Both the position numbers and the translations under genes were made by a program. DNA of 64,000 nucleotides from Anaerolineales bacterium (GTDB lineage: Bacteria > Chloroflexota > Anaerolineae > Anaerolineales > E44-bin32), in assembly GCA_036397095.1 (NCBI GenBank), contig DASWJQ010000108.1:5385-69384 (forward strand), written 5' to 3'. The notes beneath the pieces were generated by a model, which was not told the DNA's origin, did not search any database, and saw nothing but the letters and a program-made list of their open reading frames with translations. Below, piece after piece: positions 4,089 to 46,648 of this stretch. Each line of letters opens with the position of its first letter. The stretch's first letter is position 1.

Positions 4089-4104
4089 GACTAAACCTCT
4101 CCCC

Positions 4105-6407: not shown

Positions 6408-6452
6408 TTAAGCCAGGTCTCTTGAGCTCGAGAAGTAGCCAGGAGCAGACAG

Positions 6453-6926: not shown

Positions 6927-6929
6927 TCG

Positions 6930-8285
6930 ATGGCTATCGCTGACCACTGCGAGCGCTTGGAGTCGTTAGCCGGTGTCCTGACGGGCGGCCGGCAAACGCT
7001 GGCCGGCTACCTGGACGAACTTGAAGAACGCTTCACCAGGATCGAGCCTGAGATCCAGGCGTTTGTCGAGGAGCCGGCGCGTTTTGCACGGTTGCGTGCG
7101 GAGGCGGCGCAGCTGCTCGAGGCGTATCCGCATCCCCAGGACCGGCCAGCCTTGTTTGGGGTGCCGGTTGGGGTCAAGGATATCTTTCATGTCGAGGGCT
7201 TGGTCACTCGGGCGGGAACAGTGCCACCGCCGGAACGGCTGCAGGGTCCGGAAGCCGAAGCCATCCATCGGCTGAAACAGGCCGGTGCGCTGATTCTGGG
7301 CAAGACGGTGACGACCGAGTTTGGCTATTTTGCACCCGGGCCGACGCGCAATCCGCACAACCCGGATCACACGCCGGGCGGGTCGAGCAGTGGGTCGGCG
7401 GCAGCTGTCGGTGCTGGCCTGTGCCCGCTGGCGGTCGGCAGCCAGACAATCGGATCCATCATCAGGCCTGCCGCGTATTGCGGGGTGGTCGGTTACAAAC
7501 CGAGCTACGGTCGCATCTCGCGCGTTGGCATGATCCCGCTGGCGCCGTCCGTCGACCATACCGGCTTTCTGACGACGGACGCCGTCTCGGCCAGGCTGGC
7601 GGCCAGCCAGCTGTGCTACGACTGGTCGACCCGCCAAGGCCGGCCGCGGCCGGTGCTTGGCGTACCGGAAGGGCCATACTTGGAGTACGCCGACCAGGTA
7701 GCGGTCGAACATCTGCGACATATTATTGGGGTCCTGGAGCAGGCCGGATTCGTCACCCGGCCGGTTCCCGCCCTGGCCGACTTCGATCAGGTGCAGCGAG
7801 CTCACCACCGTTTGGTCGCGGGGGAAGCGGCCCGGGTCCACCAACGCTGGTACGCCGACTATGTCGAAACCTATCATCCTACGACCCTGGCGTTGGTGCG
7901 GGATGGGCAGGCGGTCAGCGACGATGAGCTGACGGCGGCGCGTGAGAGCTGTCTTCGGCTGCGCCATCAATTGACCCAGACGATGGATGCCTACGGGATC
8001 GACCTGTGGATCACGCCCTCCGCCACCGGGCCAGCGCCGGCCGGGCTGGCCAACACCGGTGACCCGGTGATGAATCTGCCGTGGAGCCACGCAGGATTGC
8101 CGGCCCTGGGGCTACCGGCTGGCCTGGCGGCCAACGGTCTGCCGCTGGGGGTGCAGTTGGTGGGGCGCTGGTTTGCGGATGAAGAGCTGATGTCGCAAGC
8201 CATCGTTCTGGAGCAGGCCTTGGCGCCGCTCCAGGGCCGACCGTTTACCATGATTGCCGGCGACGATGTCGCCCGTCCAGAATAG
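6930..8285 (+). CDS. amidase-signature family amidase
   Basis: It has GVPVGVKD (catalytic Lys region) and the GGSSSGSAAAV amidase signature. It starts 3 nt after the coxS-like stop. Confidence 0.85.
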   Translation: MAIADHCERLESLAGVLTGGRQTLAGYLDELEERFTRIEPEIQAFVEEPARFARLRAEAAQLLEAYPHPQDRPALFGVPVGVKDIFHVEGLVTRAGTVPPPERLQGPEAEAIHRLKQAGALILGKTVTTEFGYFAPGPTRNPHNPDHTPGGSSSGSAAAVGAGLCPLAVGSQTIGSIIRPAAYCGVVGYKPSYGRISRVGMIPLAPSVDHTGFLTTDAVSARLAASQLCYDWSTRQGRPRPVLGVPEGPYLEYADQVAVEHLRHIIGVLEQAGFVTRPVPALADFDQVQRAHHRLVAGEAARVHQRWYADYVETYHPTTLALVRDGQAVSDDELTAARESCLRLRHQLTQTMDAYGIDLWITPSATGPAPAGLANTGDPVMNLPWSHAGLPALGLPAGLAANGLPLGVQLVGRWFADEELMSQAIVLEQALAPLQGRPFTMIAGDDVARPE

Positions 8286-8310
8286 ACAGGGCCAAGCGAG
8301 AGAAGGCTGC

Positions 8311-9564
8311 ATGATGGATACCCGGCAGGCTAACCAGACGGCGTTCGAGCGCATGATGGCCAGCCAGCCGCGCCTGGTTAGGGTTGCCCCGGCGGGCGAG
8401 GTCGTTCCCGGCCTGACCGGCGACTTAATCTTGCACGCAGGCCCGCCCATTGCCTGGGACCAAATGAGCGGGCCTCTGCGCGGTGCCATCATCGGTGCGC
8501 TGCTTCTTGAAGGGCGCGCCCAGGTCGAGGACGAGGCCGCCGAGCTGGCGGCCAGCGGAGACATCCGCTTCGCACCCTGCCACCATCACGATGCGGTCGG
8601 GCCGATGGCGGGGGTTCTTTCGCCTTCGATGGCGGTCTACGTGGTCGAAGATTCAGCCGGCGGCCAGCTGACATTCTCCAGCTTGAATGAAGGCTATGGC
8701 AAGGTGCTGCGCTATGGCGCGTTTGCCCCCGAGGTCATCGAGAAGCTGCGCTGGATGAACCGGTCCATGGCGCCCGCTTTAAGCGCCGCGTTGGAGCAGT
8801 TAGGGGAGGTTGACTTGCGGGCCCTGATCGCCGAAGCGTTGCACATGGGCGACGAGGGTCACAATCGCAACAAGGCGGGTTCGCTTCTCTTCCTGCGCAC
8901 GCTGGCACCGGTCCTGGCGCAGGTCGTCGCCGACGCTGACGAAGGCAACCGCATCTTGGCCTTCCTCGGGGGAAACGCCCTCAGCGTGCTCAACCCGGTG
9001 ATGGCGGCCTGCAAAGCCATGACTCTGGCCGCCCATGGTGTGGAGGGCAGCAGCCTGGTGACTGTGATGGCCCGCAATGGCACCGACTTCGGCATCCGCG
9101 TGAGCGGGCTGGGCGACCGCTGGTTCGTGGCCCCCTGCGAGATGCCGGCTGGCAAGTACTTCGAGGGCTACAGCCAGAACGATGCCAACCCCGATATCGG
9201 GGACAGCACGATCACCGAGACGGCCGGCATCGGTGCCTTTGCCATGGCGGCGGCCCCGGCAATTGTCGAATTCATCAGCGGCACGCCCGAACTGACGATG
9301 GAATCAACGCTGGAGATGTATCAGATTACGCAGGGTGAGCACGAGCACTTCAACATACCGGCGCTCGGCTTCCGCGGCACCCCGACCGCCATCGATGCCT
9401 TCAAGGTGGTTGAGACCGGCATCCTGCCCCGCATCAACACCGGCATCGCCCACCGGGAGGCTGGGGTGGGACAAATCGGGGCGGGGCTCGTTCGACCGCC
9501 GATGGCAGTGTTTCAGGAGGCGGCGGAGGCGTTGCGCACCCAAGGTGCGCAGCACCATGGGTAA
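8311..9564 (+). CDS. DUF1116 protein, YlbE/AllG-like (oxamate carbamoyltransferase subunit G family)
   Basis: Start moved to ATG 8311. There are long collinear blocks with E. coli YlbE as I remember it: LHAGPP..W..M.GP..GA, PCHH..AVGPM.G, FGIRVSGLG.RWF.AP, NPD.GDS.ITET.GIG, INTGIAH.EAG.GQIGAG. Confidence 0.85.
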   Translation: MMDTRQANQTAFERMMASQPRLVRVAPAGEVVPGLTGDLILHAGPPIAWDQMSGPLRGAIIGALLLEGRAQVEDEAAELAASGDIRFAPCHHHDAVGPMAGVLSPSMAVYVVEDSAGGQLTFSSLNEGYGKVLRYGAFAPEVIEKLRWMNRSMAPALSAALEQLGEVDLRALIAEALHMGDEGHNRNKAGSLLFLRTLAPVLAQVVADADEGNRILAFLGGNALSVLNPVMAACKAMTLAAHGVEGSSLVTVMARNGTDFGIRVSGLGDRWFVAPCEMPAGKYFEGYSQNDANPDIGDSTITETAGIGAFAMAAAPAIVEFISGTPELTMESTLEMYQITQGEHEHFNIPALGFRGTPTAIDAFKVVETGILPRINTGIAHREAGVGQIGAGLVRPPMAVFQEAAEALRTQGAQHHG

Positions 9565-10220
9565 CACGCGATACGGAAAACGGGAGCTCGATAAGGAGGA
9601 ACTGTCGGACACGAAGTTCGTGTATGTGGATTACCGTCACCTCAAATGTGATTGTTGTCAGTTGATGTAGGCCTGGATAGTAGGGGGAGCCAGTGGCCAA
9701 GTATGGATTGGAGCAGCTAGAAGTCTGGCGAGCAAGCATGGAGTTGGCTAGAGACGTTTGCTTAAGGCTTGTTCCGGCATTGCCGGAGGAAGAAAAGTAC
9801 GCGCTGGCATCGCAGCTTCGTCGCGCTGCCCAGAGCATTCCGGCCAACATCGCTGAGGCTTATGGCAGATTTCATTATGCAGATGCCGCTCGCTGCTGCT
9901 ACATTGCCCGTGGATCCCTCGAAGAAATGTGGAGCCATGTGCTCTTAGGCAGGGAGATTGGATACTGGCGAGATTTCTCATTCGAGGAATTGCGCAAGAG
10001 ATATCTGAGAGTCCAACAGATGCTAAATGGCTACATTGGCTATCTCAAGAGGAGTCGCAGAACTTGAGGCCACTGGCAGAGTGCGGGCACGCCATCGCAA
10101 AGTTGGTTGAGACAAGGTTCGCTACTTTCGTGATTCAGGGGACTGGATCAGTCTTGAAAGCAGCCGAGCGTGCCCCGGTGCTGATTTTCCGTATCCCGTG
10201 TTTCGTATCCCGTATTACCT
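9561..10220 (+). repeat. inverted-repeat-flanked, lower-GC cassette carrying the four-helix-bundle gene (IVS-like element)
   Basis: The left arm (9561-9587, GGTAACACGCGATACGGAAAACGGGAG) is near-complementary to the right arm (10193-10220, CCCGTGTTTCGTATCCCGTATTACC). That gives about 26 bp with 3-4 mismatches or wobbles. The interior is visibly less GC-rich than the flanks. Confidence 0.6.
9693..10067 (+). CDS. four-helix-bundle protein (family formerly called 23S rRNA intervening-sequence protein)
   Basis: GTG start with GGGGGAG 5 nt upstream. LEVWRASMELARDVCLRL...ALASQLRRAAQSIPANIAEAYGRF...ARGSLEEM is the hallmark of this family. Confidence 0.85.
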   Translation: MAKYGLEQLEVWRASMELARDVCLRLVPALPEEEKYALASQLRRAAQSIPANIAEAYGRFHYADAARCCYIARGSLEEMWSHVLLGREIGYWRDFSFEELRKRYLRVQQMLNGYIGYLKRSRRT

Positions 10221-10256
10221 GAACCAGTTCAGATCTCAAACCAAAGGACTCATCCG

Positions 10257-11045
10257 ATGAAAATCTACGACCTCTCCCAACCCCTCAACCAGGACGCCCC
10301 CTTCTGGCCGTTCTATCCGCCGTTTGAGGTCAAGTACTTCAAGCGCAAGGCCGAGCATGGTGTCAATGCACAATACATCCAGACCTCCAATCACATGGGG
10401 ACGCATCTTGATGCGCCGCGGCACTTCATGACCGCTGGCAAGACGATCGACCAAATCCCGCTGGAGTGGGTCTACGGGCCCGGTGTCATCGTCGACTTAA
10501 GCGATCTCATGGATGAACTGGAAGTGATCACGGTCGCCATGATTGAAGAGCGGGCTGAGGTGCGCCAGGGCGATATTCTCTTCCTGCACACCGGCTGGCA
10601 CCGCCATGCTCAGTTTGGCGACCAGCCAGACGAAGAGAAGTACATTCACCGCCATCCGGGGCCTCACTTCGAAATCGTCGACTGGCTCATTGCCAAGCAG
10701 ATCCACCTGTGGGGGGTCGACATGGTATCGACCGATCACCCAATGAACCTGCCAATCGGACGCTTCCTTGGCAAGGGTGGTCTCGAACATTGGCAGAAGG
10801 TCCGCCAGCAGTGCATCGACAAGTTTGGCGAAGACCAGCTTGACAAGCTGTTTCCCGATTCGGCCTACCAATTGACGCACAATGCTTTGTTCCCGCACGA
10901 CTGTATCCATGTCGAAAATTTGGGCGGGCAGATTGGGGCTCCCGAACTGCAGAACCGCCGGCTTACGCTGGGCGCGTTCCCCTGGCTGTTTCAAGGGGGA
11001 GAGGCCGCGTTCTGCCGGGCCGTCGCTTTCGTCGAAGAGGACTGA
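10257..11045 (+). CDS. cyclase-family metal hydrolase (kynurenine formamidase / isatin hydrolase-like)
   Basis: The HxGTHxDxPxH motif is present as NHMGTHLDAPRH, within a cyclase-type fold length of 262 aa. Confidence 0.85.
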   Translation: MKIYDLSQPLNQDAPFWPFYPPFEVKYFKRKAEHGVNAQYIQTSNHMGTHLDAPRHFMTAGKTIDQIPLEWVYGPGVIVDLSDLMDELEVITVAMIEERAEVRQGDILFLHTGWHRHAQFGDQPDEEKYIHRHPGPHFEIVDWLIAKQIHLWGVDMVSTDHPMNLPIGRFLGKGGLEHWQKVRQQCIDKFGEDQLDKLFPDSAYQLTHNALFPHDCIHVENLGGQIGAPELQNRRLTLGAFPWLFQGGEAAFCRAVAFVEED

Positions 11046-11047
11046 GC

Positions 11048-13405
11048 ATGACGACACGCACCTTCGGTCAACGCATCAAGCGGAACGAAGACCCCCGGCT
11101 GCTGACCGGCCGAGCACTCTTCGTCGACGACGTCAACCCGGCAGGTTTGACGCACGCCGCCTTCGTGCGCAGCCCCTATGCCCACGCCCGCATCAAGTCG
11201 ATCGACACCTCGACGGCGCGCCAATTAGCAGGCGTGGTCGCCATCTACACGGCCGACGATCTTGGCGACTACTGGCGTAAGGGACCGCTCAACGTGTCGC
11301 CGCCCCCGATCGAGGGGCTCGAGTTCCACGAACGGACCCAGCCCATCCTGGCGCGTGACAAAGTGCGCCATGCTGGGGAAGCGCTGGCGGTAGTCATCGC
11401 CGAGAGTCGCTACCTGGCGGAAGACGCCGCCCACCAGATTGTCGTCGACTACGAGCCGCTGCCAGTCGTGGTCGAGCTTGAAGCCGCGCTCGAACCGGAG
11501 GCGGCGCTGATCCATGACGACCTCGAATCGAACCGGGCGGCCCACGTCATCCAGCGGAAGGGCGACTTCGAGGCGGCCAAGGCCAAAGCCGACCTGGTGC
11601 TGACCCGGCGTCTCGACTACGACCGCGGGGTGGCGGCGGCCATGGAAAACCGCGGCATCGTCGCCGACTGGGACCGTCTCAACCAGCGGCTGACAGTCTG
11701 GGACACAACCCAGGCACCCATCCCGATCCGCAACGGGCTGGCCGGCATGCTCGGGCTGTCGGAGGACCAGGTGCGGGTGGTGGCGCCTTTTATCGGCGGT
11801 GGGTTTGGTCCCAAAATTATGATGTTCTATCCGGAAGAAATGCTGATCCCGTGGATTGCGCTGCAGCTGCAGCGGCCCGTCAAGTGGATCGAAGATCGCG
11901 CCGAGAACTTCGTGGCCACCAGCCACGAGCGGGGTCAAATCCATGATGTCGAGTTCGCATTCACCAGGGACGGCCGACTGCTGGCTGTCAAGGATGTCTT
12001 TCTGCACGACAGCGGTGCCTACGATCCGTACGGCTTGACCATTCCCATCAACAGCCAGTGCACGTTGCTCGGCGCCTACGACGTGCCCAACTACTATTCG
12101 GAATTCACGGCGGTCTTCACCAACAAGACGATCGTCACGCCCTATCGAGGCGCCGGCCGCCAGCATGGTGTGTTTGTCATGGAGCGGATGCTCGACCTGG
12201 CGGCGCGCGAACTGGACCTCGATCCGACCGAAATCCGCCGCCTGAACTTCATTCCTTCGGACGCCTATCCCTACGACAACCAGATCATTTACCAGGACTT
12301 TGCCCCCCTGGTTTACGACAGCGGTAACCATGAGCCGGTGCTGGACAAGACGATGGAGCTCATTGGCTACCGACAGTTCCGCGATGAGATCCAGCCGGCG
12401 GCCCGCAAGCAGGGGAGAAAGTTGGGTCTTGGGTTGGTGTACTACGTGGAGGGCACCGGCATTGGCCCCTACGAAGGGGCGCGCGTGCAGATCCAACCGA
12501 GCGGCAAGGTCAGCGTCGTCACCGGCGTCGGCACCCAGGGGCAGGGCCATTTCACAAGCTTCGCCCAGGTGGTGTCCGACCAATTGGGCGTGCCCGTCGA
12601 CCAGATCACGGTCGTGACCGGTGACACCGACCAGTTCCATTGGGGAACCGGAACCTTCGCCAGCCGCGGGGCCGTGGTGGCCGGTAATGCCATCCATGCC
12701 GCTGCCAAGGAAGTGCGGCGCAAGGTGTTGGCGATGGCCAGCGAAAAACTGGAAGCGGCCGTCGAAGACCTGGAGCTGGACGGCGGATCGGTACAGGTGA
12801 AAGGCGTGCCCAGCTCGGCTATTCCGCTCGGCCAACTGGCTGCCGAAGCCAACCCGCTGCGAGGGGCGGTCAAACCCGGCACCGAGCCCGGTTTGGAGGC
12901 CACCGACTATTTTGGCCCGGAACGTGGCGCCACGGCCTACGGGGCCCATGCCATGATCGTCGAAGTCGACCAGCAGACGATGCAGGTCCACATCGATAAG
13001 TACGTTGTGGTGCACGATTGCGGCCGGGTGATCAACCCGCTAATCCTCGACGGCCAAATACACGGCGGGGTGGCGCAGGGGCTGGGCAATGCTTTCTTCG
13101 AGGAGTTGATCTATGACGAAAACGGCCAGCTGCTCAACGGCTCCTTCATGGATTACTTGCTGCCGACGGCGTCGGATGTCCCGCGCATGATCGTCGACCA
13201 TCTCGAGACCCCGTCGCCGCTGAATCCACTGGGGGTCAAAGGGGCTGGAGAAGCCGGTGCCATCCCGGTGGCGGCGCTGTTCGCACAAGCAGTCGAGGAT
13301 GCATTGGACCTGCCCGATCTCGAGCTACTCGAGATACCCCTGAGCCCAAGCCGTCTGTGGGAGCGGGTCGAGGCCGAACGACTGGCCGCGGCCGCCGAGG
13401 CCTAA
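11048..13405 (+). CDS. Mo-hydroxylase molybdopterin-binding large subunit (CoxL-like, form-II type)
   Basis: 785 aa. The N-terminus RIKRNEDPRLLTGRALFVDD is typical. The active-site loop reads TPYRGAGRQHG (AYRGAGR type), not the VAYRCSFR of true CO dehydrogenases. Confidence 0.9.
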   Translation: MTTRTFGQRIKRNEDPRLLTGRALFVDDVNPAGLTHAAFVRSPYAHARIKSIDTSTARQLAGVVAIYTADDLGDYWRKGPLNVSPPPIEGLEFHERTQPILARDKVRHAGEALAVVIAESRYLAEDAAHQIVVDYEPLPVVVELEAALEPEAALIHDDLESNRAAHVIQRKGDFEAAKAKADLVLTRRLDYDRGVAAAMENRGIVADWDRLNQRLTVWDTTQAPIPIRNGLAGMLGLSEDQVRVVAPFIGGGFGPKIMMFYPEEMLIPWIALQLQRPVKWIEDRAENFVATSHERGQIHDVEFAFTRDGRLLAVKDVFLHDSGAYDPYGLTIPINSQCTLLGAYDVPNYYSEFTAVFTNKTIVTPYRGAGRQHGVFVMERMLDLAARELDLDPTEIRRLNFIPSDAYPYDNQIIYQDFAPLVYDSGNHEPVLDKTMELIGYRQFRDEIQPAARKQGRKLGLGLVYYVEGTGIGPYEGARVQIQPSGKVSVVTGVGTQGQGHFTSFAQVVSDQLGVPVDQITVVTGDTDQFHWGTGTFASRGAVVAGNAIHAAAKEVRRKVLAMASEKLEAAVEDLELDGGSVQVKGVPSSAIPLGQLAAEANPLRGAVKPGTEPGLEATDYFGPERGATAYGAHAMIVEVDQQTMQVHIDKYVVVHDCGRVINPLILDGQIHGGVAQGLGNAFFEELIYDENGQLLNGSFMDYLLPTASDVPRMIVDHLETPSPLNPLGVKGAGEAGAIPVAALFAQAVEDALDLPDLELLEIPLSPSRLWERVEAERLAAAAEA

Positions 13406-14281
13406 TTGCGGATCCGAGCACTGCGCCTGACTCCGGTTGCCCGAGCCTGGCTCCAGGCCGCCGGCCCCGCCAGGCCGCTGCACATCTTTTCCCAGGTCTG
13501 CAACCTGATAGACGACGGCGGCCGGGTCCTATCGCTGCAAACGGCCCGGCTGGCCGACGGTCCACTATCCCTGACCGTGCCGGCGCAGGTCGGGGGCGGG
13601 CAGGGATTGGGGCATTGGATCCATGATCAGACTTCCATTGTTCGATTAGAAGATAGGCTCACAGTCGGCAAATTGACGATCGATTGGGCTGGCGCCGAAA
13701 ACTGGGATCCGACCCCTGATTGGCAGCGGTTGCGAGCCGACCAGGGTTTTACGAGCAGGCTGCCGGCGCTGCGCCGGTTGCTGGCGGCTGGGGCGCCACC
13801 TGGGGGATTGGCTGGTCTGCTAGACGAGGGAGAGTTGGCCGCGGACTCACTGGCGGCCCAGCTGTTGGCTACTGCCGGCCCGCTGGCCGCCGCTTTGCAG
13901 TCAGCGTTGCGATCGGGTAATCGGAGCCGCCTGCAGCCGGCGGCGGCCGGGCTGGCCGGCTTGGGCGGCGGTCTGACTCCATCCGGCGACGACTATCTGG
14001 TTGGGGTGATGCATGCCTTGTGGATCCAGCGGCCGCCGGCCGAGTCGACCGAGCTGTCGGAGCTGCTGGTGAGCGCGGCCGTGCCACGTACCACCCCCCT
14101 ATCGGCGGCCTGGCTGCAGGCAGCCGCCGACGGGCAGGCCTCGCGGCTGTGGCATGATTTGCTGGAGGCGCTGTTGTCGGCCGAAGGGGGAGCGATTGAA
14201 GCACCGGCCCGGGCCCTGATGGCAGTTGGTCATACCTCGGGTGCCGATGCGCTGGCCGGCTTCCTGCAAGCATTCGAGTAG
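13406..14281 (+). CDS. DUF2877 protein, YlbF/AllH-like
   Basis: TTG start directly after the large-subunit stop. GLGGGLTPSGDDYLVGVMHALW and the C-terminal VGHTSGADALAGF are the DUF2877 hallmarks. Confidence 0.75.
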   Translation: MRIRALRLTPVARAWLQAAGPARPLHIFSQVCNLIDDGGRVLSLQTARLADGPLSLTVPAQVGGGQGLGHWIHDQTSIVRLEDRLTVGKLTIDWAGAENWDPTPDWQRLRADQGFTSRLPALRRLLAAGAPPGGLAGLLDEGELAADSLAAQLLATAGPLAAALQSALRSGNRSRLQPAAAGLAGLGGGLTPSGDDYLVGVMHALWIQRPPAESTELSELLVSAAVPRTTPLSAAWLQAAADGQASRLWHDLLEALLSAEGGAIEAPARALMAVGHTSGADALAGFLQAFE

Positions 14282-14303
14282 CTGCCCATATCATCGGGGG
14301 ATC

Positions 14304-14337
14304 AAAAAAAAGCGGCGCAGCTTTGCTGCGCCGCTTT
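14304..14337. terminator. bidirectional intrinsic terminator between convergent genes
   Basis: There is a perfect 11-bp stem (AAGCGGCGCAG / CTGCGCCGCTT) with a 5-nt loop. An A7 tract precedes it, which is the U-tract for the minus-strand permease transcript. A short T-run follows. Confidence 0.75.
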
Positions 14338-14360
14338 CGGGAACCCCGACTGCGAAGTGG

Positions 14361-15773
14361 TTAGTCGCCCATTCCCATTTCGGTCGTCCGGCCAGTCCCA
14401 ACAGCATGGGATTCGACGCTGGCAACCGCGGGCGGCTTGAAGACCAGGAAGATCAGGTTGAGCAGGATGCCCGCTACGGCGCCGGTAGCGATCGCCGGCC
14501 AGCCGAAGGGGAACAGCCCCTGCAGCAACGGGATCGGCAGGAAGCCACCGGCGTAGCCGATGTGGCCGCCCACGCCGATCACCATGATGACAGCACCGAT
14601 GGCCAGCTGCTTCGGATCGAACAGGTTGACCTTCTCCGACATGATCAGGGCAATGCCTTGCATGCCGATCACGCCGAACAGGTAGATAGCCAGTCCGCCC
14701 GAAACCGCCAGCGGGATGCTGTTGACCACCGCCACCAGCTGGCCGCTGAAGGCCAGGATCATGGCGATGATGCCGCCGCCAATCAGGGCGGGGCCGGAGT
14801 AGTTGCGGGTGATCACCATCAGCGAGTTGTTCTCGCCGTAGTTGGTGCCGGCAACACCACCGATCAAGCCGTTGGTCATGTCGCCCAGACCGTCCAGTAC
14901 CAGGTTGAGGCCGATGAACTCACTGAGCTTCTGCTTCGGCCGCCCCATCTGATCGGCCAGGTTGTCGACGTACAGGCTGATCTGATACAGGTGGGCTGTT
15001 GATTCAGGGATGGTGGCGATGGCCATGGCGGCGATGCCGAAGATGGCGGTCGCAGCCAGTTCACTGCTGAAGTTCGGGAAGGTGAAGTGCGGCACCGTGA
15101 TCAGGCTGGCCGCACCCACGCCACTGAAATCGACCAGGCCGAAGGGGATCGCCACCAGGTAGCCGACGACGGCACCCAACAGCACTGGGATCATCCCGAT
15201 GAAGCCGCGGCCCTGCAGGTAGACCGAGAAGATGATGGTCACCAGCAAGGTGATCAAGGCGACGCCCCAGTGAGAGCTGGACATGTCGAGCGCAGCGAAG
15301 CCGAGGGCGAACCCGATGACCGCGGCCACCGAGCCCGTCACAATTGGCGGGAGGACCACGTCGATCGATTTCTTGCCTCCGGAGAAGCGAATGATCAAGC
15401 CGATGGCGATGTTGACCAAGCCGGTGACGATAATGCCGGCCTGGGCCGCGCCGATCAGCTCATCGCTGGCCGGGACACCGAACTGAGCGCCCGTGACCGC
15501 CAATGTGGCGGCGATGTAGCTGAAGCTCGAGCCATAGTACAGCGGGATGAACGTTCCGATCCCGAGTCGTGAGCCGAGCAGGGCCACCAGTGTGGCCAGA
15601 CCGGAGGCAAACAGCACAGTGCTGACGTGGAACCCGACGAGCAAGGCCACCAACACGGTGGCGGGGAACATGGTCAGCACGTGCTGAAGTCCGAGGAGCA
15701 CCAACTGTCCGATTGGGGGTGTGTCATTGGGCAAGTAGCCCATGACCTTGACCTTTGGGGACTCCATGGTCAT
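14361..15773 (-). CDS. NCS2-family nucleobase (uracil/xanthine-type) permease
   Basis: Start moved to ATG 15773 (MTMESPKVKV, GAGGAG RBS). It is polytopic and Gly-rich, with a typical NCS2 N-terminus (PIGQLVLLGLQHVLTMFPATV). Confidence 0.85.
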   Translation of the reverse strand: MTMESPKVKVMGYLPNDTPPIGQLVLLGLQHVLTMFPATVLVALLVGFHVSTVLFASGLATLVALLGSRLGIGTFIPLYYGSSFSYIAATLAVTGAQFGVPASDELIGAAQAGIIVTGLVNIAIGLIIRFSGGKKSIDVVLPPIVTGSVAAVIGFALGFAALDMSSSHWGVALITLLVTIIFSVYLQGRGFIGMIPVLLGAVVGYLVAIPFGLVDFSGVGAASLITVPHFTFPNFSSELAATAIFGIAAMAIATIPESTAHLYQISLYVDNLADQMGRPKQKLSEFIGLNLVLDGLGDMTNGLIGGVAGTNYGENNSLMVITRNYSGPALIGGGIIAMILAFSGQLVAVVNSIPLAVSGGLAIYLFGVIGMQGIALIMSEKVNLFDPKQLAIGAVIMVIGVGGHIGYAGGFLPIPLLQGLFPFGWPAIATGAVAGILLNLIFLVFKPPAVASVESHAVGTGRTTEMGMGD

Positions 15774-16151
15774 TATGTTCTCCTCTTCACAAAGGAATGT
15801 GTCTAGTAAAAGCGCTTGGGTTGGACGCGGGGCGCTTGGTCCGCCGCACCGCGAGTGCAGTTCGAGGTCTCCAACACCTCCTTGGCGCAAGAGAGCCATA
15901 GCCGGCAGGTGGTGGGGTGGGGTTCCCAAGTGTTGCTTCGCGGGCGGTCAGCAGGCGTTGTGTTTGCCTGCATCCGCGTCGGCACCCTCCGGCGGTGTGA
16001 TCCATGTAGGAAAACACCAGATGTGGGAAAAAGTGTCGCTGAATCCCCACACTTATGCTTAGACTAGCACGGTAGCGGGTATGATTCTGGGTCCGCCAAT
16101 CACATCCTCGACCGCCATTCGTCACATCACGACAGGGCGGCCCGTGTTTGG

Positions 16152-16196: not shown

Positions 16197-16269
16197 GGGC
16201 CTGTAGCGCAGTTGGGAGCGCGCTTCAATCGCACTGAAGAGGTCGCGGGTTCGAATCCCGCCAGGTCCA
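16197..16269 (+). tRNA. tRNA-Ala (anticodon CGC)
   Basis: The cloverleaf was drawn by hand: acceptor GGGCCTG/CAGGTCC with the G3:U70 Ala identity pair, D arm GCGC-AGTTGGGA-GCGC, anticodon loop AT-CGC-AC, T arm GCGGG-TTCGAAT-CCCGC, discriminator A. No CCA is encoded. Confidence 0.9.
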
Positions 16270-16284
16270 CAGACAACCTAGCCT

Positions 16285-16357
16285 GGGCCCATAGCGCAGT
16301 TGGGAGCGCGTCTCAATGGCATTGAGAAGGTCGTGGGTTCGAATCCCACTGGGTCCA
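16285..16357 (+). tRNA. tRNA-Ala (anticodon GGC)
   Basis: Acceptor GGGCCCA/TGGGTCC with G3:U70, anticodon loop AT-GGC-AT, T arm GTGGG-TTCGAAT-CCCAC. It lies 15 nt after the first tRNA. Confidence 0.9.
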
Positions 16358-16363
16358 CCTGAA

Positions 16364-25445: not shown

Positions 25446-25661
25446 TCAGCCCTCGCCTTGTCGCATGGACTCCAACTCGGCTTCCAACTGGGCGCGCCGC
25501 ATGCGGTACGCGTCACTCATCTCATCCCGTAGGGAGCCAAGACGGCTGGTAGCCCGCTGGCGCAGTTGGTCACCGGAGGCCGGGGTAATCAGCAGGGCGA
25601 CCACCGAGCCGGCCAATGCGCCGCAAAAGGCGCCCGCGACGAAATTCATGAATCGGCGCAT
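25446..25661 (-). CDS. YtxH-domain small membrane-associated protein
   Basis: It has an N-terminal hydrophobic helix (FVAGAFCGALAGSVVALLITPASG) followed by a charged coiled segment, the typical YtxH layout. Confidence 0.7.
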   Translation of the reverse strand: MRRFMNFVAGAFCGALAGSVVALLITPASGDQLRQRATSRLGSLRDEMSDAYRMRRAQLEAELESMRQGEG

Positions 25662-25769
25662 AGTTCACCTCCTCTTTCCCTTCCATTATCCCATAGGTCG
25701 CGCCTGGGCCTGACTGTGACAGGTCATGGCCTGGGGTACACTCGGGGCAACGAGCTATAGGAGGCAGAC

Positions 25770-26021
25770 GTGTTGATCAGCATCGCGATTGAATACTGCG
25801 CGGTTTGACACTACGCCGACAGAGCCATCGGTCGGATGGCAGAGCTATTGAAGGCGTACGAAACAAAGATCGAGAAGATTGCACTAGTTCCCTCGGAAGG
25901 CGGCCGCTTCGAGGTGACGGTCAATGGACAACTTCTATACTCGAAGCTTGAGACCGGTCGACACCTGGAAGACGGAGAGATCGTCGAAATCGTTGGCCGC
26001 CACCTGGACGAGCAGGGCTGA
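25770..26021 (+). CDS. SelW/Rdx-family (SelW-like) selenoprotein candidate; in-frame TGA (25806-25808) read as Sec
   Basis: The ORF track gives only the C-terminal 61 aa. The same frame is open upstream to GTG 25770, with AGGAGG at 25759-25764 (5-nt spacer). It reads MLISIAIEYCAV-TGA-HYADRAIGRMAELL..., the Rdx CxxU redox motif in the right place. Downstream, GGRFEVTVNGQLLYSKLETGRH is the family core. Confidence 0.7.
25824..25840 (+). promoter_or_regulatory. candidate bacterial SECIS hairpin
   Basis: GCCATC-GGTCG-GATGGC is a 6-bp stem with a G/U-containing apical loop. It starts 15 nt after the TGA. It was folded by eye only. Confidence 0.4.
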
Positions 26022-26063: not shown

Positions 26064-26513
26064 ATGCGGGTATTGCTGCAGCGGGTGCAAGCCGGCCGCG
26101 TCTCGGTCACGGGTGAGATGATTGCCGCCATCGAAAAGGGCCTGGTCTTGCTCGTTGGTGTAGTGCACGGCGACGGGCCGGAACAAGCCAAGTGGCTGGC
26201 GGCCAAGTGCGCCGGCTTGCGGGTGTTCGAGGACGAAGCCGGCAAGATCAACCTGTCCGTGCTCGACATCGGTGGCCAGGCCCTGGTTGTATCCCAGTTC
26301 ACGCTCTATGCCGATGTGCGCAAGGGCCGCCGGCCTAGCTTTACTGACGCCGCCGAGCCGGAATTGGCGGAACGACTGGTCGGGGAGTTCGCCCACGCGC
26401 TGGCGGCCGAGGGGGTCCCAACGCAAACCGGGCAATTCGCGGCCCACATGCTGGTGGAAATCCAAAATGATGGGCCGGTGACGATTCTGCTTGAGCGAAG
26501 CTCAGACTCCTAA
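26064..26513 (+). CDS. dtd: D-aminoacyl-tRNA deacylase
   Basis: MRVLLQRV...GLVLLVGV...VSQFTLYADVRKGRRPSF...NDGPVTILLE are canonical Dtd motifs. Confidence 0.9.
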   Translation: MRVLLQRVQAGRVSVTGEMIAAIEKGLVLLVGVVHGDGPEQAKWLAAKCAGLRVFEDEAGKINLSVLDIGGQALVVSQFTLYADVRKGRRPSFTDAAEPELAERLVGEFAHALAAEGVPTQTGQFAAHMLVEIQNDGPVTILLERSSDS

Positions 26514-26539: not shown

Positions 26540-26566
26540 AACAGCGCGCCGTGAGGGGCGCTGTTT
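26540..26566. terminator. hairpin between convergent dtd and membrane-protein genes
   Basis: AACAGCGC..GCGCTGTT stem followed by a short T-run. Confidence 0.4.
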
Positions 26567-30869: not shown

Positions 30870-30890
30870 ACAGAACGCACAGCAAGCGAT

Positions 30891-30920
30891 ACGGCCCCTG
30901 CGCAAGCGGGGGCCGTTTTG
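30891..30920 (+). terminator. intrinsic terminator of the SPFH gene
   Basis: ACGGCCCC-loop-GGGGCCGT followed by TTTT. Confidence 0.75.
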
Positions 30921-30926
30921 ATTCCC

Positions 30927-31007
30927 GGACCACAGACGATGGACCAAGGACGATGGGGACCGCCGACGGCCGACGGCGGACACCGGACCGCGGACGACAA
31001 CGGAGAC
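30927..31007. repeat. degenerate heptanucleotide (GAC every 7 nt) tandem array
   Basis: GGACCAC AGACGAT GGACCAA GGACGAT ... CGGACAC CGGACCG CGGACGA was read by eye. The periodicity was not computed. Confidence 0.55.
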
Positions 31008-31071
31008 CCCTGAGTCCGCTCAGGGATCGTGCGTCGTATTCAGGTCCAGGTCGCATTGAAACCAACCCGTA

Positions 31072-31093
31072 GGGGCGCATTGCAATGCGCCCC
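31072..31093. repeat. perfect 22-nt palindrome (REP-like hairpin)
   Basis: GGGGCGCATTGCAATGCGCCCC is its own reverse complement and is preceded by GTA, giving GTAGGGGCG. Confidence 0.8.
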
Positions 31094-31140
31094 AATAATG
31101 TTACGGGATCAGCGGCCGGTCGCCGGCGCCAAACCGAGGG

Positions 31141-31284
31141 CGATGGATCATCGTGACGGTCGATATGGGCCGTGGACCGCGGACGATGGCCGCGGACGAA
31201 ATGGACCGCCGACGGCGGACCGCGCTCGATACGGTCGATCGTCCATGGTCCGTCCTTGCCGTCCGCGGTCAGCCGTCTGCGGTC
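31141..31284. repeat. second heptamer array, switching from GAC-type to its complement (GTC-type)
   Basis: ...GGACCGC GGACGAT GGCCGCG GACGAAA TGGACCG CCGACGG... is followed by CGTCCAT GGTCCGT CCTTGCC GTCCGCG GTCAGCC GTCTGCG GTC, ending at the kinase stop codon. GACCGCGGACG (31176) is complementary to CGTCCGCGGTC (31260). Confidence 0.5.
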
Positions 31285-35461: not shown

Positions 35462-36142
35462 GTGCTGTTCGATGCTCTGTCGCTGAAGCATATCGCCCGC
35501 CCGCCGCTGTCCCCTACGGGCAAGCGGCCGCGCCTGCTGCTTATGCTTCACGGCGTGGGCAGCAACGAGCGCGACCTATTCCCGTTGGCTGCCGAGCTCG
35601 ATCCTCGCTTTTATGTGTTGAGCCTGCGTGGCCCTTATCAACTAGCGCCGGACCAATTCGGCTGGTACGAGCTGGCATTCACTCCTGGTGGCTTTGAATA
35701 CGATCCGGCTCAGGTCGAGGCCAGCCGGCGCAAACTGGCGGGCTTTGTCGATGAAGCCATCGAGCACTACCAGGCGGCCGATCGGGTCTACCTATTTGGC
35801 TTCAGCCAGGGTGCGACGTTGAGCCTGACCCTGCTGCTGACGGAACCAAGCCGGTTGGCGGCGGTGGTGGCGGTCGCCGGCCGTACCCTGCCCGAGCTGT
35901 TCCAGGCCTCCACTCCGCTCAGCGGCAGGCTGGCCGAGGCCAGCGAATTGAAGGGACACAGTTTGTTTCTGGCGCACGGGGTCGCCGACCGGATTTCCCC
36001 AGTCGCCTACGGCCGACAGGCGTCAAAGCTTATCGAGCGATCCCCAGTTGACATGACCTACCGCGAGTACGATATGGACCATACGATTGGTCCGCAATGT
36101 CTCAAAGAAATCGCGGCTTGGCTCGGGGGCCAAATGGCGTAG
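35462..36142 (+). CDS. alpha/beta-hydrolase (phospholipase/carboxylesterase family)
   Basis: It has HGVGSNERD, a nucleophile elbow GFSQGA and a C-terminal HGVADR...H triad pattern. GTG start. Confidence 0.8.
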   Translation: MLFDALSLKHIARPPLSPTGKRPRLLLMLHGVGSNERDLFPLAAELDPRFYVLSLRGPYQLAPDQFGWYELAFTPGGFEYDPAQVEASRRKLAGFVDEAIEHYQAADRVYLFGFSQGATLSLTLLLTEPSRLAAVVAVAGRTLPELFQASTPLSGRLAEASELKGHSLFLAHGVADRISPVAYGRQASKLIERSPVDMTYREYDMDHTIGPQCLKEIAAWLGGQMA

Positions 36143-36179
36143 CCCTTTGGCGATTGGGACCACGGAGAGAGGAGGGGAC

Positions 36180-37190
36180 ATGGCCGAGAATCACGCGGTC
36201 GCCAAGACGCGGCGGGCGCACACCAAAGACCTGCTTGAACTCGAGAACGTAATCGGAGTGGGTGAGGGCTACCGCGAGAGCGGTGGCCGCCGCACCGATG
36301 AGCTGGTAGTAGTTGTGCTGGTCCGCCAGAAGCTGCCCCGCGAACGTGTGCCCAGCTCACAGATGGTGCCCAAGACCCTCGACCAGGTGCCGACCGACGT
36401 CATCGAGGTCGGGGATGTGCGCGCCTTTGCCGAACGCACCGACCGGTTCCGGCCTGCGCCGCCGGGCGTCAGCCTGGGTCACTACCTTGTGACCGCCGGA
36501 ACCTTTGGCGCCGTGGTGCGCGACCGGGCGACCGGCGACCCGCTGATCCTCTCGAACAACCACGTGATGGCCAATAGCAACGACGCCCGCATCGGCGATC
36601 CCATCCTCCAGCCCGGCGCCGCCGATGGCGGGCAGCGGGCCAGCGACACGATCGCCGAGTTGGTACGCTTTGCCCCCATCGAATTCTTGGTCGAGCCGCC
36701 GGCCTGTTCGATTGCTTCGGGCGTGGCGGCGCTGGCCAACGCGGTTGCCCGCCTATTGAGCTCGAGCCATCGCCTGCAGGCCTACCAATCCCATCCCGAA
36801 GCCAGCAACCTGGTCGACGCAGCAGTGGCCGCGCCGGTCGATCCGAGCCTGATCGGGCATGATGTGCTCGAGATCGGCGCCATCAGCGGTGTGCGGCCGG
36901 CCTCCTTGGGGATGCCGGTGCGCAAGTCGGGCCGCTCGACCGGGTTCACGATGGGTGAGGTGAATATCCTGGACGCTACGATTTCCGTTGGCTATGGGCC
37001 ATCGCGGCGCGCCCGCTTCGAGGGCCAGATCATCACCAGCGCCATGTCGGCACCCGGCGATTCCGGTTCGCTGCTGGTGGCCGGTGACGGGCCGCAGGCC
37101 GTCGGCTTGCTCTTTGCCGGCTCCGAGCAAGTCACAATCCACAATCCAATCGAAGCTGTGCTGGCCGCGCTGGAGGTGGAATTGCCATGA
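36180..37190 (+). CDS. chymotrypsin-fold (S1-type) serine peptidase with N-terminal accessory domain
   Basis: Start moved to ATG 36180 (GAGAGGAGGGG RBS). It has candidate triad residues in LSNNHVM and VDAAV, plus GDSGSLLV. No obvious signal peptide is present. Confidence 0.65.
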   Translation: MAENHAVAKTRRAHTKDLLELENVIGVGEGYRESGGRRTDELVVVVLVRQKLPRERVPSSQMVPKTLDQVPTDVIEVGDVRAFAERTDRFRPAPPGVSLGHYLVTAGTFGAVVRDRATGDPLILSNNHVMANSNDARIGDPILQPGAADGGQRASDTIAELVRFAPIEFLVEPPACSIASGVAALANAVARLLSSSHRLQAYQSHPEASNLVDAAVAAPVDPSLIGHDVLEIGAISGVRPASLGMPVRKSGRSTGFTMGEVNILDATISVGYGPSRRARFEGQIITSAMSAPGDSGSLLVAGDGPQAVGLLFAGSEQVTIHNPIEAVLAALEVELP

Positions 37191-42143: not shown

Positions 42144-43787
42144 CTAACCCGCCGGCAGGGCGAAGGTGATCGAAGTGCTGACCGCTGTATGGTTGTGCCA
42201 CAAGTAGCCGCCCATCGACTCAGCGATCAATCTGACCTCGCCCATCGAGAGCCCCGGGCCCAGACTGCCAACCGTAGGATCGGCCTCGGGCAGCGACAGT
42301 GCGCGAACGGTATCCGGGGACAGACCACCGCTTGAATCTGAAACCTCCACCGCCACCCAACGGCCGTCCGGCAGCGACTGTTCCTGGGGCAAGGGGAAAC
42401 CGCTGCTGTAGCCAGCGGTCACATCGAACTGGCGCAGGGTGAGCGCTATTCGTCCCCGCTGGGTACGGCGAATGGCCGCCGCCGTGAGCGCCTCGATCAC
42501 CCGATGGATCCTTCCCTGATGCCCGCGCAGCCGCGGCAAGCGGCCGTTTGATTCGAGCACCAGTTCAAGACTGCGCTGGCGGGCAGCCATCCTCAGCTCA
42601 TCAACTACCCGGGCCGCCACCTGCTCGAGGTCGATGTAAGAACCCTCGGTGCCGGACTCCAGCAGGGCCATCGGCAGTTGGCGCAGGGAAATGACTCGGT
42701 CGAGCATATCCGCCCAGCGCTGGTGGGAGGCGGGATCGGTCTGATCCTTGAGACCGGCCCGCAGTTCGTTTTCCAGCTGCTCCAACCCATGAATTAGATC
42801 CAACGGTATCTGGGCCGTCGCTGGTGTGGGCGGGGGAGCCGACGGCGGCTCGGCGGGCGCAGCGGGTGGCTCGCCGGCCGATTGTTCGAGCGCGACGCCG
42901 GCCCAATCGGCCAGCGCCCCGAGCAAGGTGACATGGTGCTCACTGAATGGACGTGGCGCCAGCCGGTTGTAGACCCCCAGCACGCCAACCGGCCGCTGGC
43001 CGATCCGGACCGGCACCTTGATCAGGGACTGGACCAGAAAACCGGTCTGCACCTTGACCGGTTTTGCTCCTTCTTCGGGCTGGCGGACGATCGGCTGCCC
43101 CGAGCGGAACACGTGACCGGCCAGGGTATCGGTAATGCGCAATCGCTTGAGCGTGCCGCGCGTCTCGCCGGCCGATTTGCTGGCACGCAGCACCACTTCG
43201 CGCGAGCCTTGCTCGGCCAGGTAGATATTGGCTTCTTCGGCGTCGGTCAAGAAGGCGGCCGCCTCGACTACCCGCGTCAGGATGGACTCGAGGTTGCGCA
43301 ATCCAACCACCGTCCGGCCGATCTCACTTAGCCAGCGGATCTCTTCGGAGCGGCGCCTGGCCTGCTCCCGGGTTGACTGCAACCGGCGCGCCAGCAGTTG
43401 GGTCGTGACCTCGGTCGACCGGGCCTCACTCAATGCATAAATCGACTTGCACAGCTCAACGCCTTTGTAGGGCTTGAGCATGACATCGGCCACGCCCAGG
43501 CGGAATAGGTCCCGCAGCCGCGCCGTCGGGAAATGGGCCGCCAGTACGATCGCCGGCGCTTCGTCGCCTTTGGCACGCAGCGTGCGCAAGCCTCCGAGAG
43601 GGTCGCCTAGCTGCTGGGTGATGTCGACCAGCAAGACGTCGGGGGTCGGGGCCTGTGGGTCTTCGGCGGGCCAAGCGCGGATGCCGGCCGGTTTGAGGAT
43701 TTTGTCAATAATCCCCTGGGCGTTGCTGGCTACATCGGCCAGCACCAGAACGACGGGATTGCGGCCGCGGTGATCAAGTTCACTCAT
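42144..43787 (-). CDS. REC - GAF - histidine-kinase-like (HATPase) signalling protein
   Basis: Start at ATG 43787, overlapping the BMC-P stop by 8 nt. It has a REC-like N-terminus (VVLVLAD...DVLLVDI...MLKPY) and a GAF-like middle (ILTRVVEAAAFLTDAEEANIYL...VGVLGVYN). A possible degenerate H-box (ASHQRWADML) precedes the HATPase boxes (DSSGGL, GPGLSMGEVRLIAESMGG). Confidence 0.7.
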   Translation of the reverse strand: MSELDHRGRNPVVLVLADVASNAQGIIDKILKPAGIRAWPAEDPQAPTPDVLLVDITQQLGDPLGGLRTLRAKGDEAPAIVLAAHFPTARLRDLFRLGVADVMLKPYKGVELCKSIYALSEARSTEVTTQLLARRLQSTREQARRRSEEIRWLSEIGRTVVGLRNLESILTRVVEAAAFLTDAEEANIYLAEQGSREVVLRASKSAGETRGTLKRLRITDTLAGHVFRSGQPIVRQPEEGAKPVKVQTGFLVQSLIKVPVRIGQRPVGVLGVYNRLAPRPFSEHHVTLLGALADWAGVALEQSAGEPPAAPAEPPSAPPPTPATAQIPLDLIHGLEQLENELRAGLKDQTDPASHQRWADMLDRVISLRQLPMALLESGTEGSYIDLEQVAARVVDELRMAARQRSLELVLESNGRLPRLRGHQGRIHRVIEALTAAAIRRTQRGRIALTLRQFDVTAGYSSGFPLPQEQSLPDGRWVAVEVSDSSGGLSPDTVRALSLPEADPTVGSLGPGLSMGEVRLIAESMGGYLWHNHTAVSTSITFALPAG

Positions 43788-44049
43788 ACATTTGTATCGA
43801 GTCGACGATGCCCACGACAACGGAGCGGACACAGCCCTCAGGCTGATCCAGAACCTGGCGGGCGCCGTTACCCTCGTCGTTGATCAGGACCGTGTCGCCG
43901 ACGCCGGCATGGGTGATGTCGAGCGCCACCAGATCCTCTTGCTCCTCATTGTCGGGATCGAGTGGCTGCACAACCAGCAGCCGACGCTGCTTGAAGTCAG
44001 GGTGGCTTATTGTGGTGACTACGGTGCCGACGACTTTCCCTAGAATCAT
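43780..44049 (-). CDS. BMC-P (EutN/CcmL-family) vertex protein
   Basis: MILGKVVGTVVTTISHPDFKQRRLLVVQPLD...GVGDTVLI is the EutN/CcmL pattern. Confidence 0.85.
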   Translation of the reverse strand: MILGKVVGTVVTTISHPDFKQRRLLVVQPLDPDNEEQEDLVALDITHAGVGDTVLINDEGNGARQVLDQPEGCVRSVVVGIVDSIQMYE

Positions 44050-44058
44050 GACATGGTC

Positions 44059-44373
44059 TCAACTGTAGAGGTTGAGCCCCTTCTTGAGTTGGAAGTCAAT
44101 GCCTTCTTGGATGTTCAGTTCGTCGACAATGCCGATGATGGCCAGATCGATCGGGACGAACGTCTCATTGCGCATGGCCAAGGCCGCCTCGCGTGAGGCC
44201 ACCGTCAGGCACAAGTCGCCCGGCCCGGCTTCGACCACGTCCGCCGCCACCTGCAGGCTGTCGACCGGTTCCAGGCGTTTGTTCACCGGCTGCACCACCA
44301 GCAAGCTGACGCCTTTGATCCCGTCGACCTTCAGGGTGCAAACGGCGCGGCCATGCACCCTGGCCAAGTTCAC
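44059..44373 (-). CDS. BMC-P (EutN/CcmL-family) vertex protein
   Basis: GTG start. LARVHGRAVCTLKVDGIKGVSLLVVQP...GPGDLCL... It carries a C-terminal extension. Confidence 0.85.
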   Translation of the reverse strand: MNLARVHGRAVCTLKVDGIKGVSLLVVQPVNKRLEPVDSLQVAADVVEAGPGDLCLTVASREAALAMRNETFVPIDLAIIGIVDELNIQEGIDFQLKKGLNLYS

Positions 44374-44374
44374 C

Positions 44375-44734
44375 TTAACTCACTCCCAACTGGTCGAGTA
44401 CGCGATCGAGGATGCGGTCGAGCAGTTCCTGGTCGACCTGGTCGCCGAGCTTGTGGCCAACCGCTTGCCGGACGCGCTGGCGAATGTCGCTGGCTGCTGG
44501 CAGGCTGCCACCATCATCCGACTTGGTCTCGAGTGGCGGCGCATAGCGCATGGAGGCCGCTTGACGTGCGGCCTGCTCGGGGATCTGGTAGGCGCCGACG
44601 ATGATGATGCCTTCTTTGGCGGCTCGCTCGCGAGCCAGGTCGGTCATCCGATCCTCGGGCCCAAGGTGCAGCTGGCGCCCTCCCGCCTGGGCAAGGTCGA
44701 CGATGTCAACTTCGGTGTAAAACTCGGCAGCCAT
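44375..44734 (-). CDS. BMC-associated hypothetical protein with C-terminal amphipathic helix
   Basis: Start moved to ATG 44734 (MAAEFYTEVDIVDLA...). The C-terminal DQELLDRILDRVLDQLG resembles an encapsulation peptide. Confidence 0.55.
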   Translation of the reverse strand: MAAEFYTEVDIVDLAQAGGRQLHLGPEDRMTDLARERAAKEGIIIVGAYQIPEQAARQAASMRYAPPLETKSDDGGSLPAASDIRQRVRQAVGHKLGDQVDQELLDRILDRVLDQLGVS

Positions 44735-44751
44735 CGCTACACCGCCTCGTG

Positions 44752-45381
44752 CTACTCGGCGCGGCCTTCGAGGGCGCCCAGCGCAGTATCGACCGCTTCG
44801 CGCGCCGTGCTGATTTCGGACTCGGATCCGGACAACCACATTCGGCCAAAACGACCGATCCCCGAGAAGTGAAGCAGGTTAATACTGGCCGACTTCTCGG
44901 CTTCGTTGCAGGCGTAAGTGATGTAGGCGGCCGGTGCAACTTCCATCACCAGCATGGTCTGGCCTGGAATCAACATCGTGCCGCGCCTGAAACGATTGAT
45001 CAGCTGCGCCTGGTAAGGCTCGACATTGGTGATGATCTGGTTGGAAATCACCTGCGGTTTGACCCGGTCTTCTCGTTTCAATCCCAGCCGATCCAGCACG
45101 ATGCGGCCCGCTTCAAGCACCTCGGCCTGCTCGGGGTGATGGACTTCGAAGGTGCCGAATTCGCGTTCGACAATCTGCACGCCCGGCCGGGCCCGCGTCG
45201 CTTTGACGGCGATGTCGACGACGCGGAACACTTCATTACCTGGCGCCATCTCGATGTAGAGCGAAGCCATGCCCTCGGTCGACAGGTCGCCCTGGGTAAT
45301 CGTACCGATGAATGCGGCGAACTGGGCCTGCATGCGATCGAGGTACACGTAGCAGCGAAGTGAGAAATCAGTGCTCATCAA
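44752..45381 (-). CDS. BMC-T (tandem BMC-domain) shell protein
   Basis: Two BMC-like halves are each marked by the shell-domain helix (FRVVDIAVKATRARPGVQIV and AYITYACNEAEKSASINLL). 209 aa. Confidence 0.7.
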   Translation of the reverse strand: MMSTDFSLRCYVYLDRMQAQFAAFIGTITQGDLSTEGMASLYIEMAPGNEVFRVVDIAVKATRARPGVQIVEREFGTFEVHHPEQAEVLEAGRIVLDRLGLKREDRVKPQVISNQIITNVEPYQAQLINRFRRGTMLIPGQTMLVMEVAPAAYITYACNEAEKSASINLLHFSGIGRFGRMWLSGSESEISTAREAVDTALGALEGRAE

Positions 45382-46247: not shown

Positions 46248-46257
46248 CTAGGGTCGG

Positions 46258-46593: not shown

Positions 46594-46648
46594 GTTGCTT
46601 CCTCCATCAAGTAGTGGGCAGGCCGGATCCCGACCTGAGTCGGGTCAG

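Follow-up and report, generated by a model that had tools for sequence, protein, structure and literature searches.

An in-frame TGA as a probable selenocysteine codon in a SelW/Rdx-like gene of Anaerolineae

Does the TGA triplet at 25806..25808 (forward strand) of the 64-kb window (the whole stretch of DNA analysed here, to which positions refer unless a relative is named) end a reading frame, or is it decoded as selenocysteine (Sec) inside a gene that standard gene finding cuts short? Mechanical ORF calling recovers only a 61-aa product (ATG 25836..26021), and public gene calls give the identical product (P0001, 100% identity) on at least 24 contigs from several samples. The original prediction held that this ORF is a fragment of a longer frame, open upstream to GTG 25770 and preceded at 5 nt by a perfect AGGAGG, and that the gene is complete only if the TGA is read as Sec. 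Direct translation bears out the longer frame: from GTG 25770 to TGA 25806-25808 it is open and reads MLISIAIEYCAV, and with the TGA read through the N-terminus becomes V/M-LISIAIEYCAV-TGA-HYADRAIGR-MAELLKAYETK..., continuing to the terminal stop TGA at 26019-26021 (forward strand). The candidate selenoprotein gene, identified by its translation and by matches to PF10262, TIGR02174 and Rdx proteins in the PDB (see below), spans 25770..26021 (forward strand; 83 codons plus stop). The Shine-Dalgarno sequence AGGAGG can be read directly at 25759..25764 (forward strand), at the proposed distance from the GTG; its region (AGGAGGCAG) is kept in a sister species (L095), in which the remaining 5′ leader has diverged. 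The codon for Cys10 (25797-25799, forward strand) opens the redox motif C-A-V-U (TGC GCG GTT TGA, 25797..25808, forward strand), which aligns with the CxxC of homologues and ends with the TGA as the presumed codon of Sec13. The internal ATG (Met23, 25836..25838, forward strand), a false start used by gene callers, lies inside the 3′ arm of a hairpin described below.

Profile comparisons place the read-through protein in the Rdx/SelW family. With the TGA translated as Cys, the 83-aa protein matches Pfam Rdx (PF10262, cutoff 22.6 bits) at 72.1 bits over profile positions 2-72 of 74, whereas the 61-aa fragment reaches only 49.1 bits over positions 22-72 of 74, as expected if the called ORF is an incomplete Rdx domain that read-through of the TGA completes; the fragment lacks two defining features of the family, its first beta strand and its CxxC/U motif. 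The protein also matches TIGR02174 (NCBIfam CXXU_selWTH; 56.4 bits against a cutoff of 34.2, profile positions 1-73 of 74), and it belongs to this broader subfamily, outside the Campylobacter-type equivalog NF041051 (SelTWH_Campy), for which it scored 72 bits against a cutoff of 88. Searching PDB sequences with phmmer retrieved the bacterial Rdx proteins 2fa8, 3dex, 2p0g, 2ojl, 2obk, and 2oka (E = 3e-9 to 4e-5) as well as human MIEN1 (2ljk), and homology to these solved structures predicts a thioredoxin-like fold for the window protein. All four alignments shown (2fa8, 3dex, 2p0g, and 2ojl) set IEYCAV[TGA]HY opposite I.YC..C.W, therefore the TGA column is that of the second Cys of CxxC, and six environmental CxxC homologues (P0174, P0187, P0196, P0260, P0193, and P0255) likewise have their second Cys in this column; the TGA had been predicted to sit at exactly this second redox position. 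When 1.84 billion representative proteins were searched with the 61-aa query, 209 matches were found, mostly fragments of about 60 aa, and the full-length ones among them contain CxxC or “CxxW” in the TGA column. For P0131 (L088, 499-771), the W of CxxW is encoded by TGA in the DNA; therefore, the CxxW entries are Sec forms to which genetic code 4 was applied in translation, and their Trp is an artefact standing for Sec, with confirmation at the DNA level for P0131. Other database entries with CxxW are P0171, P0182, and P0252.

We sought relatives in one genome per GTDB species and compared the best 80 of the 397 found, all of which are Chloroflexota and mostly Anaerolineae (including Thermanaerothrix daxensis and Anaerolinea thermolimosa). 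Together with the window and four near-identical contigs these make 85 loci, which contain 80 distinct sequences. The in-frame stop is TGA in all 85 loci and never TAA, TAG, TGC, or TGT; with Cys forms found in 0 of 85, the sampled Anaerolineae appear to have the SelW-like protein in its Sec form only. Both the motif Cys and the TGA are invariant in the 80 distinct sequences, in the conserved context ..K-I-E-I-V-Y-C-A-V-TGA-H-Y-T-x-R-A-V-S/G-L.. (more generally, ..YC-x-x-TGA-[HNQR]Y..). In the same 80 sequences, the mean column entropies at the first, second, and third codon positions are 0.53/0.39/1.38 over nine codons upstream of the TGA, zero at the TGA itself, and 0.62/0.42/1.08 over ten codons downstream of it; third positions are thus 2-3.5 times as variable as positions 1 and 2 on both flanks, a coding signature that runs through the TGA. 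By this pattern the upstream frame, on whose conservation at the protein level the original prediction was made to depend, is conserved among the 80 distinct sequences, and both flanks are intact and under purifying selection. Because TGA is also the commonest ordinary stop among the 48 genes of the window (25 TGA, 14 TAG, and 9 TAA), the genetic code is not reassigned.

Some of the related loci have peculiarities of their own. The SelW-like frame near position 6001 of L028, a locus from a groundwater MAG, contains an internal duplication (..PSDGGRF-DRAVSLMDELLKGYEH..PSDGGRFEV..) that may have arisen in assembly or be a genuine tandem duplication, and the same MAG has a second SelW-like copy on another contig (L018). 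Identical SelW-like loci also occur on two contigs, of 12 kb and 1.76 Mb, in MAG MFD02979.bin.2.70 (L032 and L033), which probably reflects redundant assembly and not a true paralogue.

The TGA is followed, starting 15 nt downstream, by a putative bacterial SECIS hairpin at 25824..25840 (forward strand), with the 5′ arm GCCAUC at 25824-25829, the loop GGUCG at 25830-25834, and the 3′ arm GAUGGC at 25835-25840. Folding of the 60 nt that follow the TGA gives -18.7 kcal/mol (z = -2.68 relative to shuffled sequences). A comparable 6-bp hairpin with a GGU loop follows 10 of the 1668 TGA triplets in the window, as against about 7 in shuffled sequence, therefore the hairpin in a single sequence is no evidence by itself; the gain in the Rdx profile match and the comparison among relatives, in contrast, far exceed what chance would give. 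The proposal of GCCATC-GGTCG-GATGGC as a SECIS candidate is supported by its position, its conservation, and its compensatory changes among relatives, although taken alone it is no rarer than chance. Among the 80 distinct post-TGA sequences, 79 can form a hairpin of 6-7 bp in one of two registers, both of which place a GU of the apical loop at 22-27 nt from the U of UGA. Type A, to which the window belongs (35 sequences), has its stem at nt 19-24/30-35 from the U of UGA and a loop that is mostly GGUCU or GGUGC; type B (44 sequences) has its stem at nt 14-20/26-32 and the loop CGUGA. In type A, 97.6% of the cells are paired, falling to 14-58% when the 3′ partners are displaced by 1-3 columns, and in type B 93.4% are paired, falling to 14-43%; these percentages are inflated, because the sequences were assigned to registers by pairing quality, whereas the compensatory changes are unaffected by this sorting. 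Changes on both sides of a pair occur in four of the six pairs of type A (40 cells observed against 13.2 +/- 4.3 in shuffled alignments) and in three of the seven pairs of type B (24 cells against 12.2). Since the stem is itself coding, it co-varies with the residues that it encodes (I..M, A..A, V..T). RNAalifold independently predicted the same helices for both registers.

A closer view of the hairpin comes from the sister species L095, found in the same samples, whose called 61-aa product is 77% identical. Between L095 and the window only one of 57 nt differs across the motif, the TGA, and the hairpin, while 35 of the 61 downstream codons differ, which points to constraint on the RNA as well as on the protein. 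No SECIS family in Rfam was matched by the hairpin in either gathering-threshold or permissive searches; the near match RAGATH-28 (17 bits against a threshold of 45.3, E = 0.39) is at chance level. A possible outer helix around the hairpin (25812-25817 with 25852-25857, UACGCC/GGCGUA) appears in the single-sequence fold and is predicted in L095 too.

Decoding of the TGA as Sec would require the corresponding machinery, and we looked for it in the window and in the relatives. No tRNA-Sec was found in the 64-kb window, whose only tRNAs are two tRNA-Ala, or in 865 kb of related loci. Neither Pfam scans of large ORFs and of the called genes of matching contigs nor tblastn with E. coli SelA, SelB, and SelD gave any selA, selB, or selD in the window, and there are no sel genes within 10 kb beyond either window edge (84 kb around the locus). 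An EF-like gene to the left of the window, considered as SelB, is EF-G; the tblastn match to SelB in L083 is EF-Tu by its domain architecture; and P0375, which a SelD profile search offered as the window organism's own SelD, was rejected as it comes from other samples. If the window organism has selA, selB, selC, and selD, as we infer, they lie beyond the window and the 10 kb searched on each side of it.

The relatives are more informative, and they clearly use Sec. In eight loci (L014, where it occupies 10490-11533, L017, L031, L063, L076, L079, L081, and L084), tblastn located selD downstream of the SelW-like TGA gene, 4-5 kb away; the encoded SelD is full-length and shares about 40% of its residues with that of E. 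coli (E = 1e-55 to 1e-71). A ninth selD-linked locus, L089, is arranged likewise, with selD at 10001-10945, and its SelW-like TGA gene was left uncalled. All nine linked selD genes have an in-frame TGA of their own at the position of E. coli Cys17 (SCAG-TGA-ASK compared with GAGCGCK), the known Sec/Cys site of SelD. The selD TGA in these relatives is followed by the hairpin GGCGCA-GGUGC-UGCGCC, whose GGUGC loop is also the loop of the SelW-like hairpin in L014, L017, L031, and L079; one loop motif in two unrelated genes of the same genome is what a common SelB would lead one to expect. In the SelD profile search, most of the 120 best database matches are about 320 aa long, which suggests that these entries are cut at the Sec codon. 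In syntenic relatives selD directly follows Band_7, while the window and the sisters L095 and L096 have a minus-strand PfkB after Band_7 (window 30870-31283 compared with L089 8739-10945). With PfkB at the syntenic place of selD, the selD of the window organism, if present, is therefore elsewhere; judging from gene order, it appears to have been moved or lost from the post-Band_7 position in the window lineage. SelB, the elongation factor dedicated to Sec, has been reported from Anaerolinea thermophila UNI-1 and from Anaerolineales single-cell genomes (PMC4959059), yet A. thermophila reportedly has no annotated selenoprotein.

Three other explanations of the in-frame TGA have to be weighed against decoding as Sec. 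The one that survives best, although we consider it improbable, is that the lineage has lost selD and the Sec trait, and that UGA 25806 is now read through without Sec machinery, for example as Cys or Trp by near-cognate or suppressor decoding. The empty 84 kb around the locus and the absence of selD from its position in syntenic relatives are what such a loss would leave behind, but sel genes are often scattered across a genome, of which 84 kb is a small fraction. Moreover, no other part of the gene is as well conserved relative to the sister species as the TGA and hairpin (the single change in 57 nt noted above), which indicates ongoing RNA-level constraint of the SECIS kind; the clear use of Sec by the relatives also counts against read-through without it, as does the role of TGA as the main ordinary stop in the window.

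Still less probable, to our minds, is that the TGA is a real stop, with the 61 aa from ATG 25836 as the functional product and the 12 upstream codons as a leader peptide or uORF with a regulatory hairpin. Gene callers do give a model of the 61-aa type for hundreds of relatives, and the ATG lies near the hairpin, which could in principle gate re-initiation. However, inspection of the sequence revealed no ribosome-binding site before ATG 25836, and the called starts of the relatives vary in position and in codon (ATG or GTG, giving products of 59-70 aa), so the relatives share no internal start. Between the TGA and the ATG, nine codons are under amino-acid selection in the same frame, a product that begins at the ATG is missing the CxxC/U motif and the beta strand before it, and in the 85 loci the triplet is TGA throughout, never TAA or TAG. 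As for a decaying Rdx pseudogene, in which a Cys codon (TGC or TGT) has mutated to TGA, the change would take a single base and the annotated product is truncated, but the comparative data effectively exclude it: the 80 distinct sequences, which come from different species-level genomes, all have the TGA, with flanks that are intact and under purifying selection, and the identical protein recurs on 24 or more contigs in several samples.

We therefore put at roughly 90% the probability that 25770-26021 (forward strand) is a genuine SelW-like CxxU gene in which Sec insertion at UGA 25806 depends on SECIS and SelB, a reading of the gene as complete only with the TGA as Sec that is supported by the Cys/Sec column, the conserved frame, the conserved hairpin, and the Sec-type selD of relatives. 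The main residual doubt attaches to the sel genes of the window organism, whose presence we have presumed. In the decoding that we propose, translation would start at GTG 25770, 5 nt after AGGAGG, and the ribosome would not terminate at UGA 25806; the hairpin at 25824-25840, acting as a bacterial SECIS element, would bind SelB-GTP and so recruit Sec-tRNA(Sec), Sec would be inserted, and translation would go on to the stop at 26019. The predicted product is an 83-residue thioredoxin-fold protein with the active site Cys10-Ala-Val-Sec13, which would presumably work as a CxxU thiol/selenol oxidoreductase.

The SelW-like gene is followed, 42 nt downstream, by the D-aminoacyl-tRNA deacylase gene dtd (26064..26513, forward strand; TIGR00256, 160.6 bits). 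There is no terminator-like site between the two genes, and one is found at 26546-26561, after dtd; they are probably co-transcribed. On the other side, a YtxH-like gene (25446-25661, reverse strand) is divergent from the SelW-like gene. In 64 of the 80 related loci the SelW-like gene has dtd downstream of it on the same strand, and a class-I Trp/Tyr-tRNA synthetase gene often separates the two; this linkage may reflect function or mere conserved gene order. Considering the fixed order with TrpRS/TyrRS and the D-aminoacyl-tRNA deacylase, and the Sec-type selD that is often a few kb away, one might speculate that many Anaerolineae keep the entire Sec apparatus mainly for a minimal set of selenoproteins, SelD and the SelW-like protein, the latter with a redox function tied to aminoacyl-tRNA quality control, an idea that we regard as doubtful.

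A scan of the window for further selenoprotein genes as TGA-bridged ORFs returned only junctions of adjacent genes and antisense frames, and a SECIS-style scan found nine other sites with a TGA plus hairpin, none in a redox-motif context. The most promising TGA among these candidates, at 44059-44061 (reverse strand), was rejected, as it separates two complete tandem EutN/CcmL genes (43783-44058 and 44062-44379). With a nearby aldehyde dehydrogenase (46649-48139) and a DeoC-type aldolase (48752-49681), this region (43783-49681, reverse strand) looks like a bacterial microcompartment locus. Elsewhere, the window contains a cluster for molybdenum hydroxylase and purine/oxamate catabolism (100-15930), with genes for a CoxE-like VWA protein, XdhC, a CoA-transferase III, FAD-binding and MoCo-binding subunits, an amidase, AllG, AllH, and a xanthine/uracil permease, and a tandem pair of tRNA-Ala genes (anticodons CGC and GGC; 16197-16359), 15 nt apart and just upstream of leuS. 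A 367-aa ORF at 36087-37190 (forward strand) has good coding statistics and no Pfam match at E <= 1e-5.

The consequences are chiefly for annotation. That standard annotation would miss or truncate the gene was foreseen, and the best 120 database relatives of the SelW-like protein are all truncated calls of 59-70 aa (120 of 120); the linked selD genes are mostly cut likewise, to about 320 aa, and some SelW-like entries have a spurious Trp where the TGA was read under genetic code 4. Correction restores the catalytic motif of a protein found class-wide in Anaerolineae and marks these organisms as selenium users, which bears on how the metabolism of Chloroflexota from sediments, digesters, and the subsurface is reconstructed. 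Since the SelW/Rdx selenoprotein family is well known, this is an annotation fix and not a discovery, and there is no new biology here beyond the known bacterial SelW-like family.

Bacterial selenoproteins of the SelW-like type have been known since about 2005. SelW-like proteins with CxxU, described by Zhang, Gladyshev, and colleagues (PMC1794560; PMC2398784), are established in bacteria, in agreement with the original prediction that the family is not new. The family is reported to be among the most widespread in prokaryotic selenoproteomes (PMC2398784), and SelW-like proteins and SelD are reported to be the most widespread selenoproteins of ocean metagenomes (PMC1794560; PMC2398784). The window protein resembles them in its small Rdx/SelW fold with CxxU right after the first beta strand, in the coding-region hairpin directly after the in-frame UGA, in the predominance of Sec forms (427 Sec against 56 Cys forms in GOS, PMC2398784; TGA in 85 of 85 loci here), and in its co-occurrence, in relatives, with a Sec-containing SelD. 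It differs in its host, here Chloroflexota and mostly Anaerolineae, which we did not find named as SelW-like hosts in a non-exhaustive search of the literature, and in the two alternative hairpin registers of the Anaerolineae orthologues.

Among solved structures, the nearest comparison is with the Cys-containing bacterial Rdx proteins 2fa8 (Atu0228), 3dex (SAV_2001), 2p0g (a SelW-related protein of Vibrio), 2ojl, 2obk, and 2oka. The homology covers residues 5-65 with the redox motif identically placed (IxYCxxC compared with IEYCAVU), but the Cys proteins have CxxC, about 105 aa, and a longer C-terminal part, whereas the window protein has CxxU and 83 aa. The SECIS element of E. coli fdhF, whose sequence we read from NC_000913.3, is likewise a coding-region hairpin just 3′ of the UGA; the next codon is CAC in both, and both have GGUC in the apical loop (nt 22-25 in fdhF and nt 25-28 in the window, counted from the U of UGA), but the putative SECIS stem in the window has 6 plain base pairs and no counterpart to the bulged U of fdhF, and its loop is 3 nt further from the UGA. 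Mammalian SelW and MIEN1/C17orf37 (2ljk, E = 9e-6) share PF10262 and have CxxU or CxxC in the same place; eukaryotic SelW, however, depends on a SECIS element in the 3′-UTR with SBP2 and eEFSec, whereas the candidate element in the window lies within the coding region, as in bacteria.
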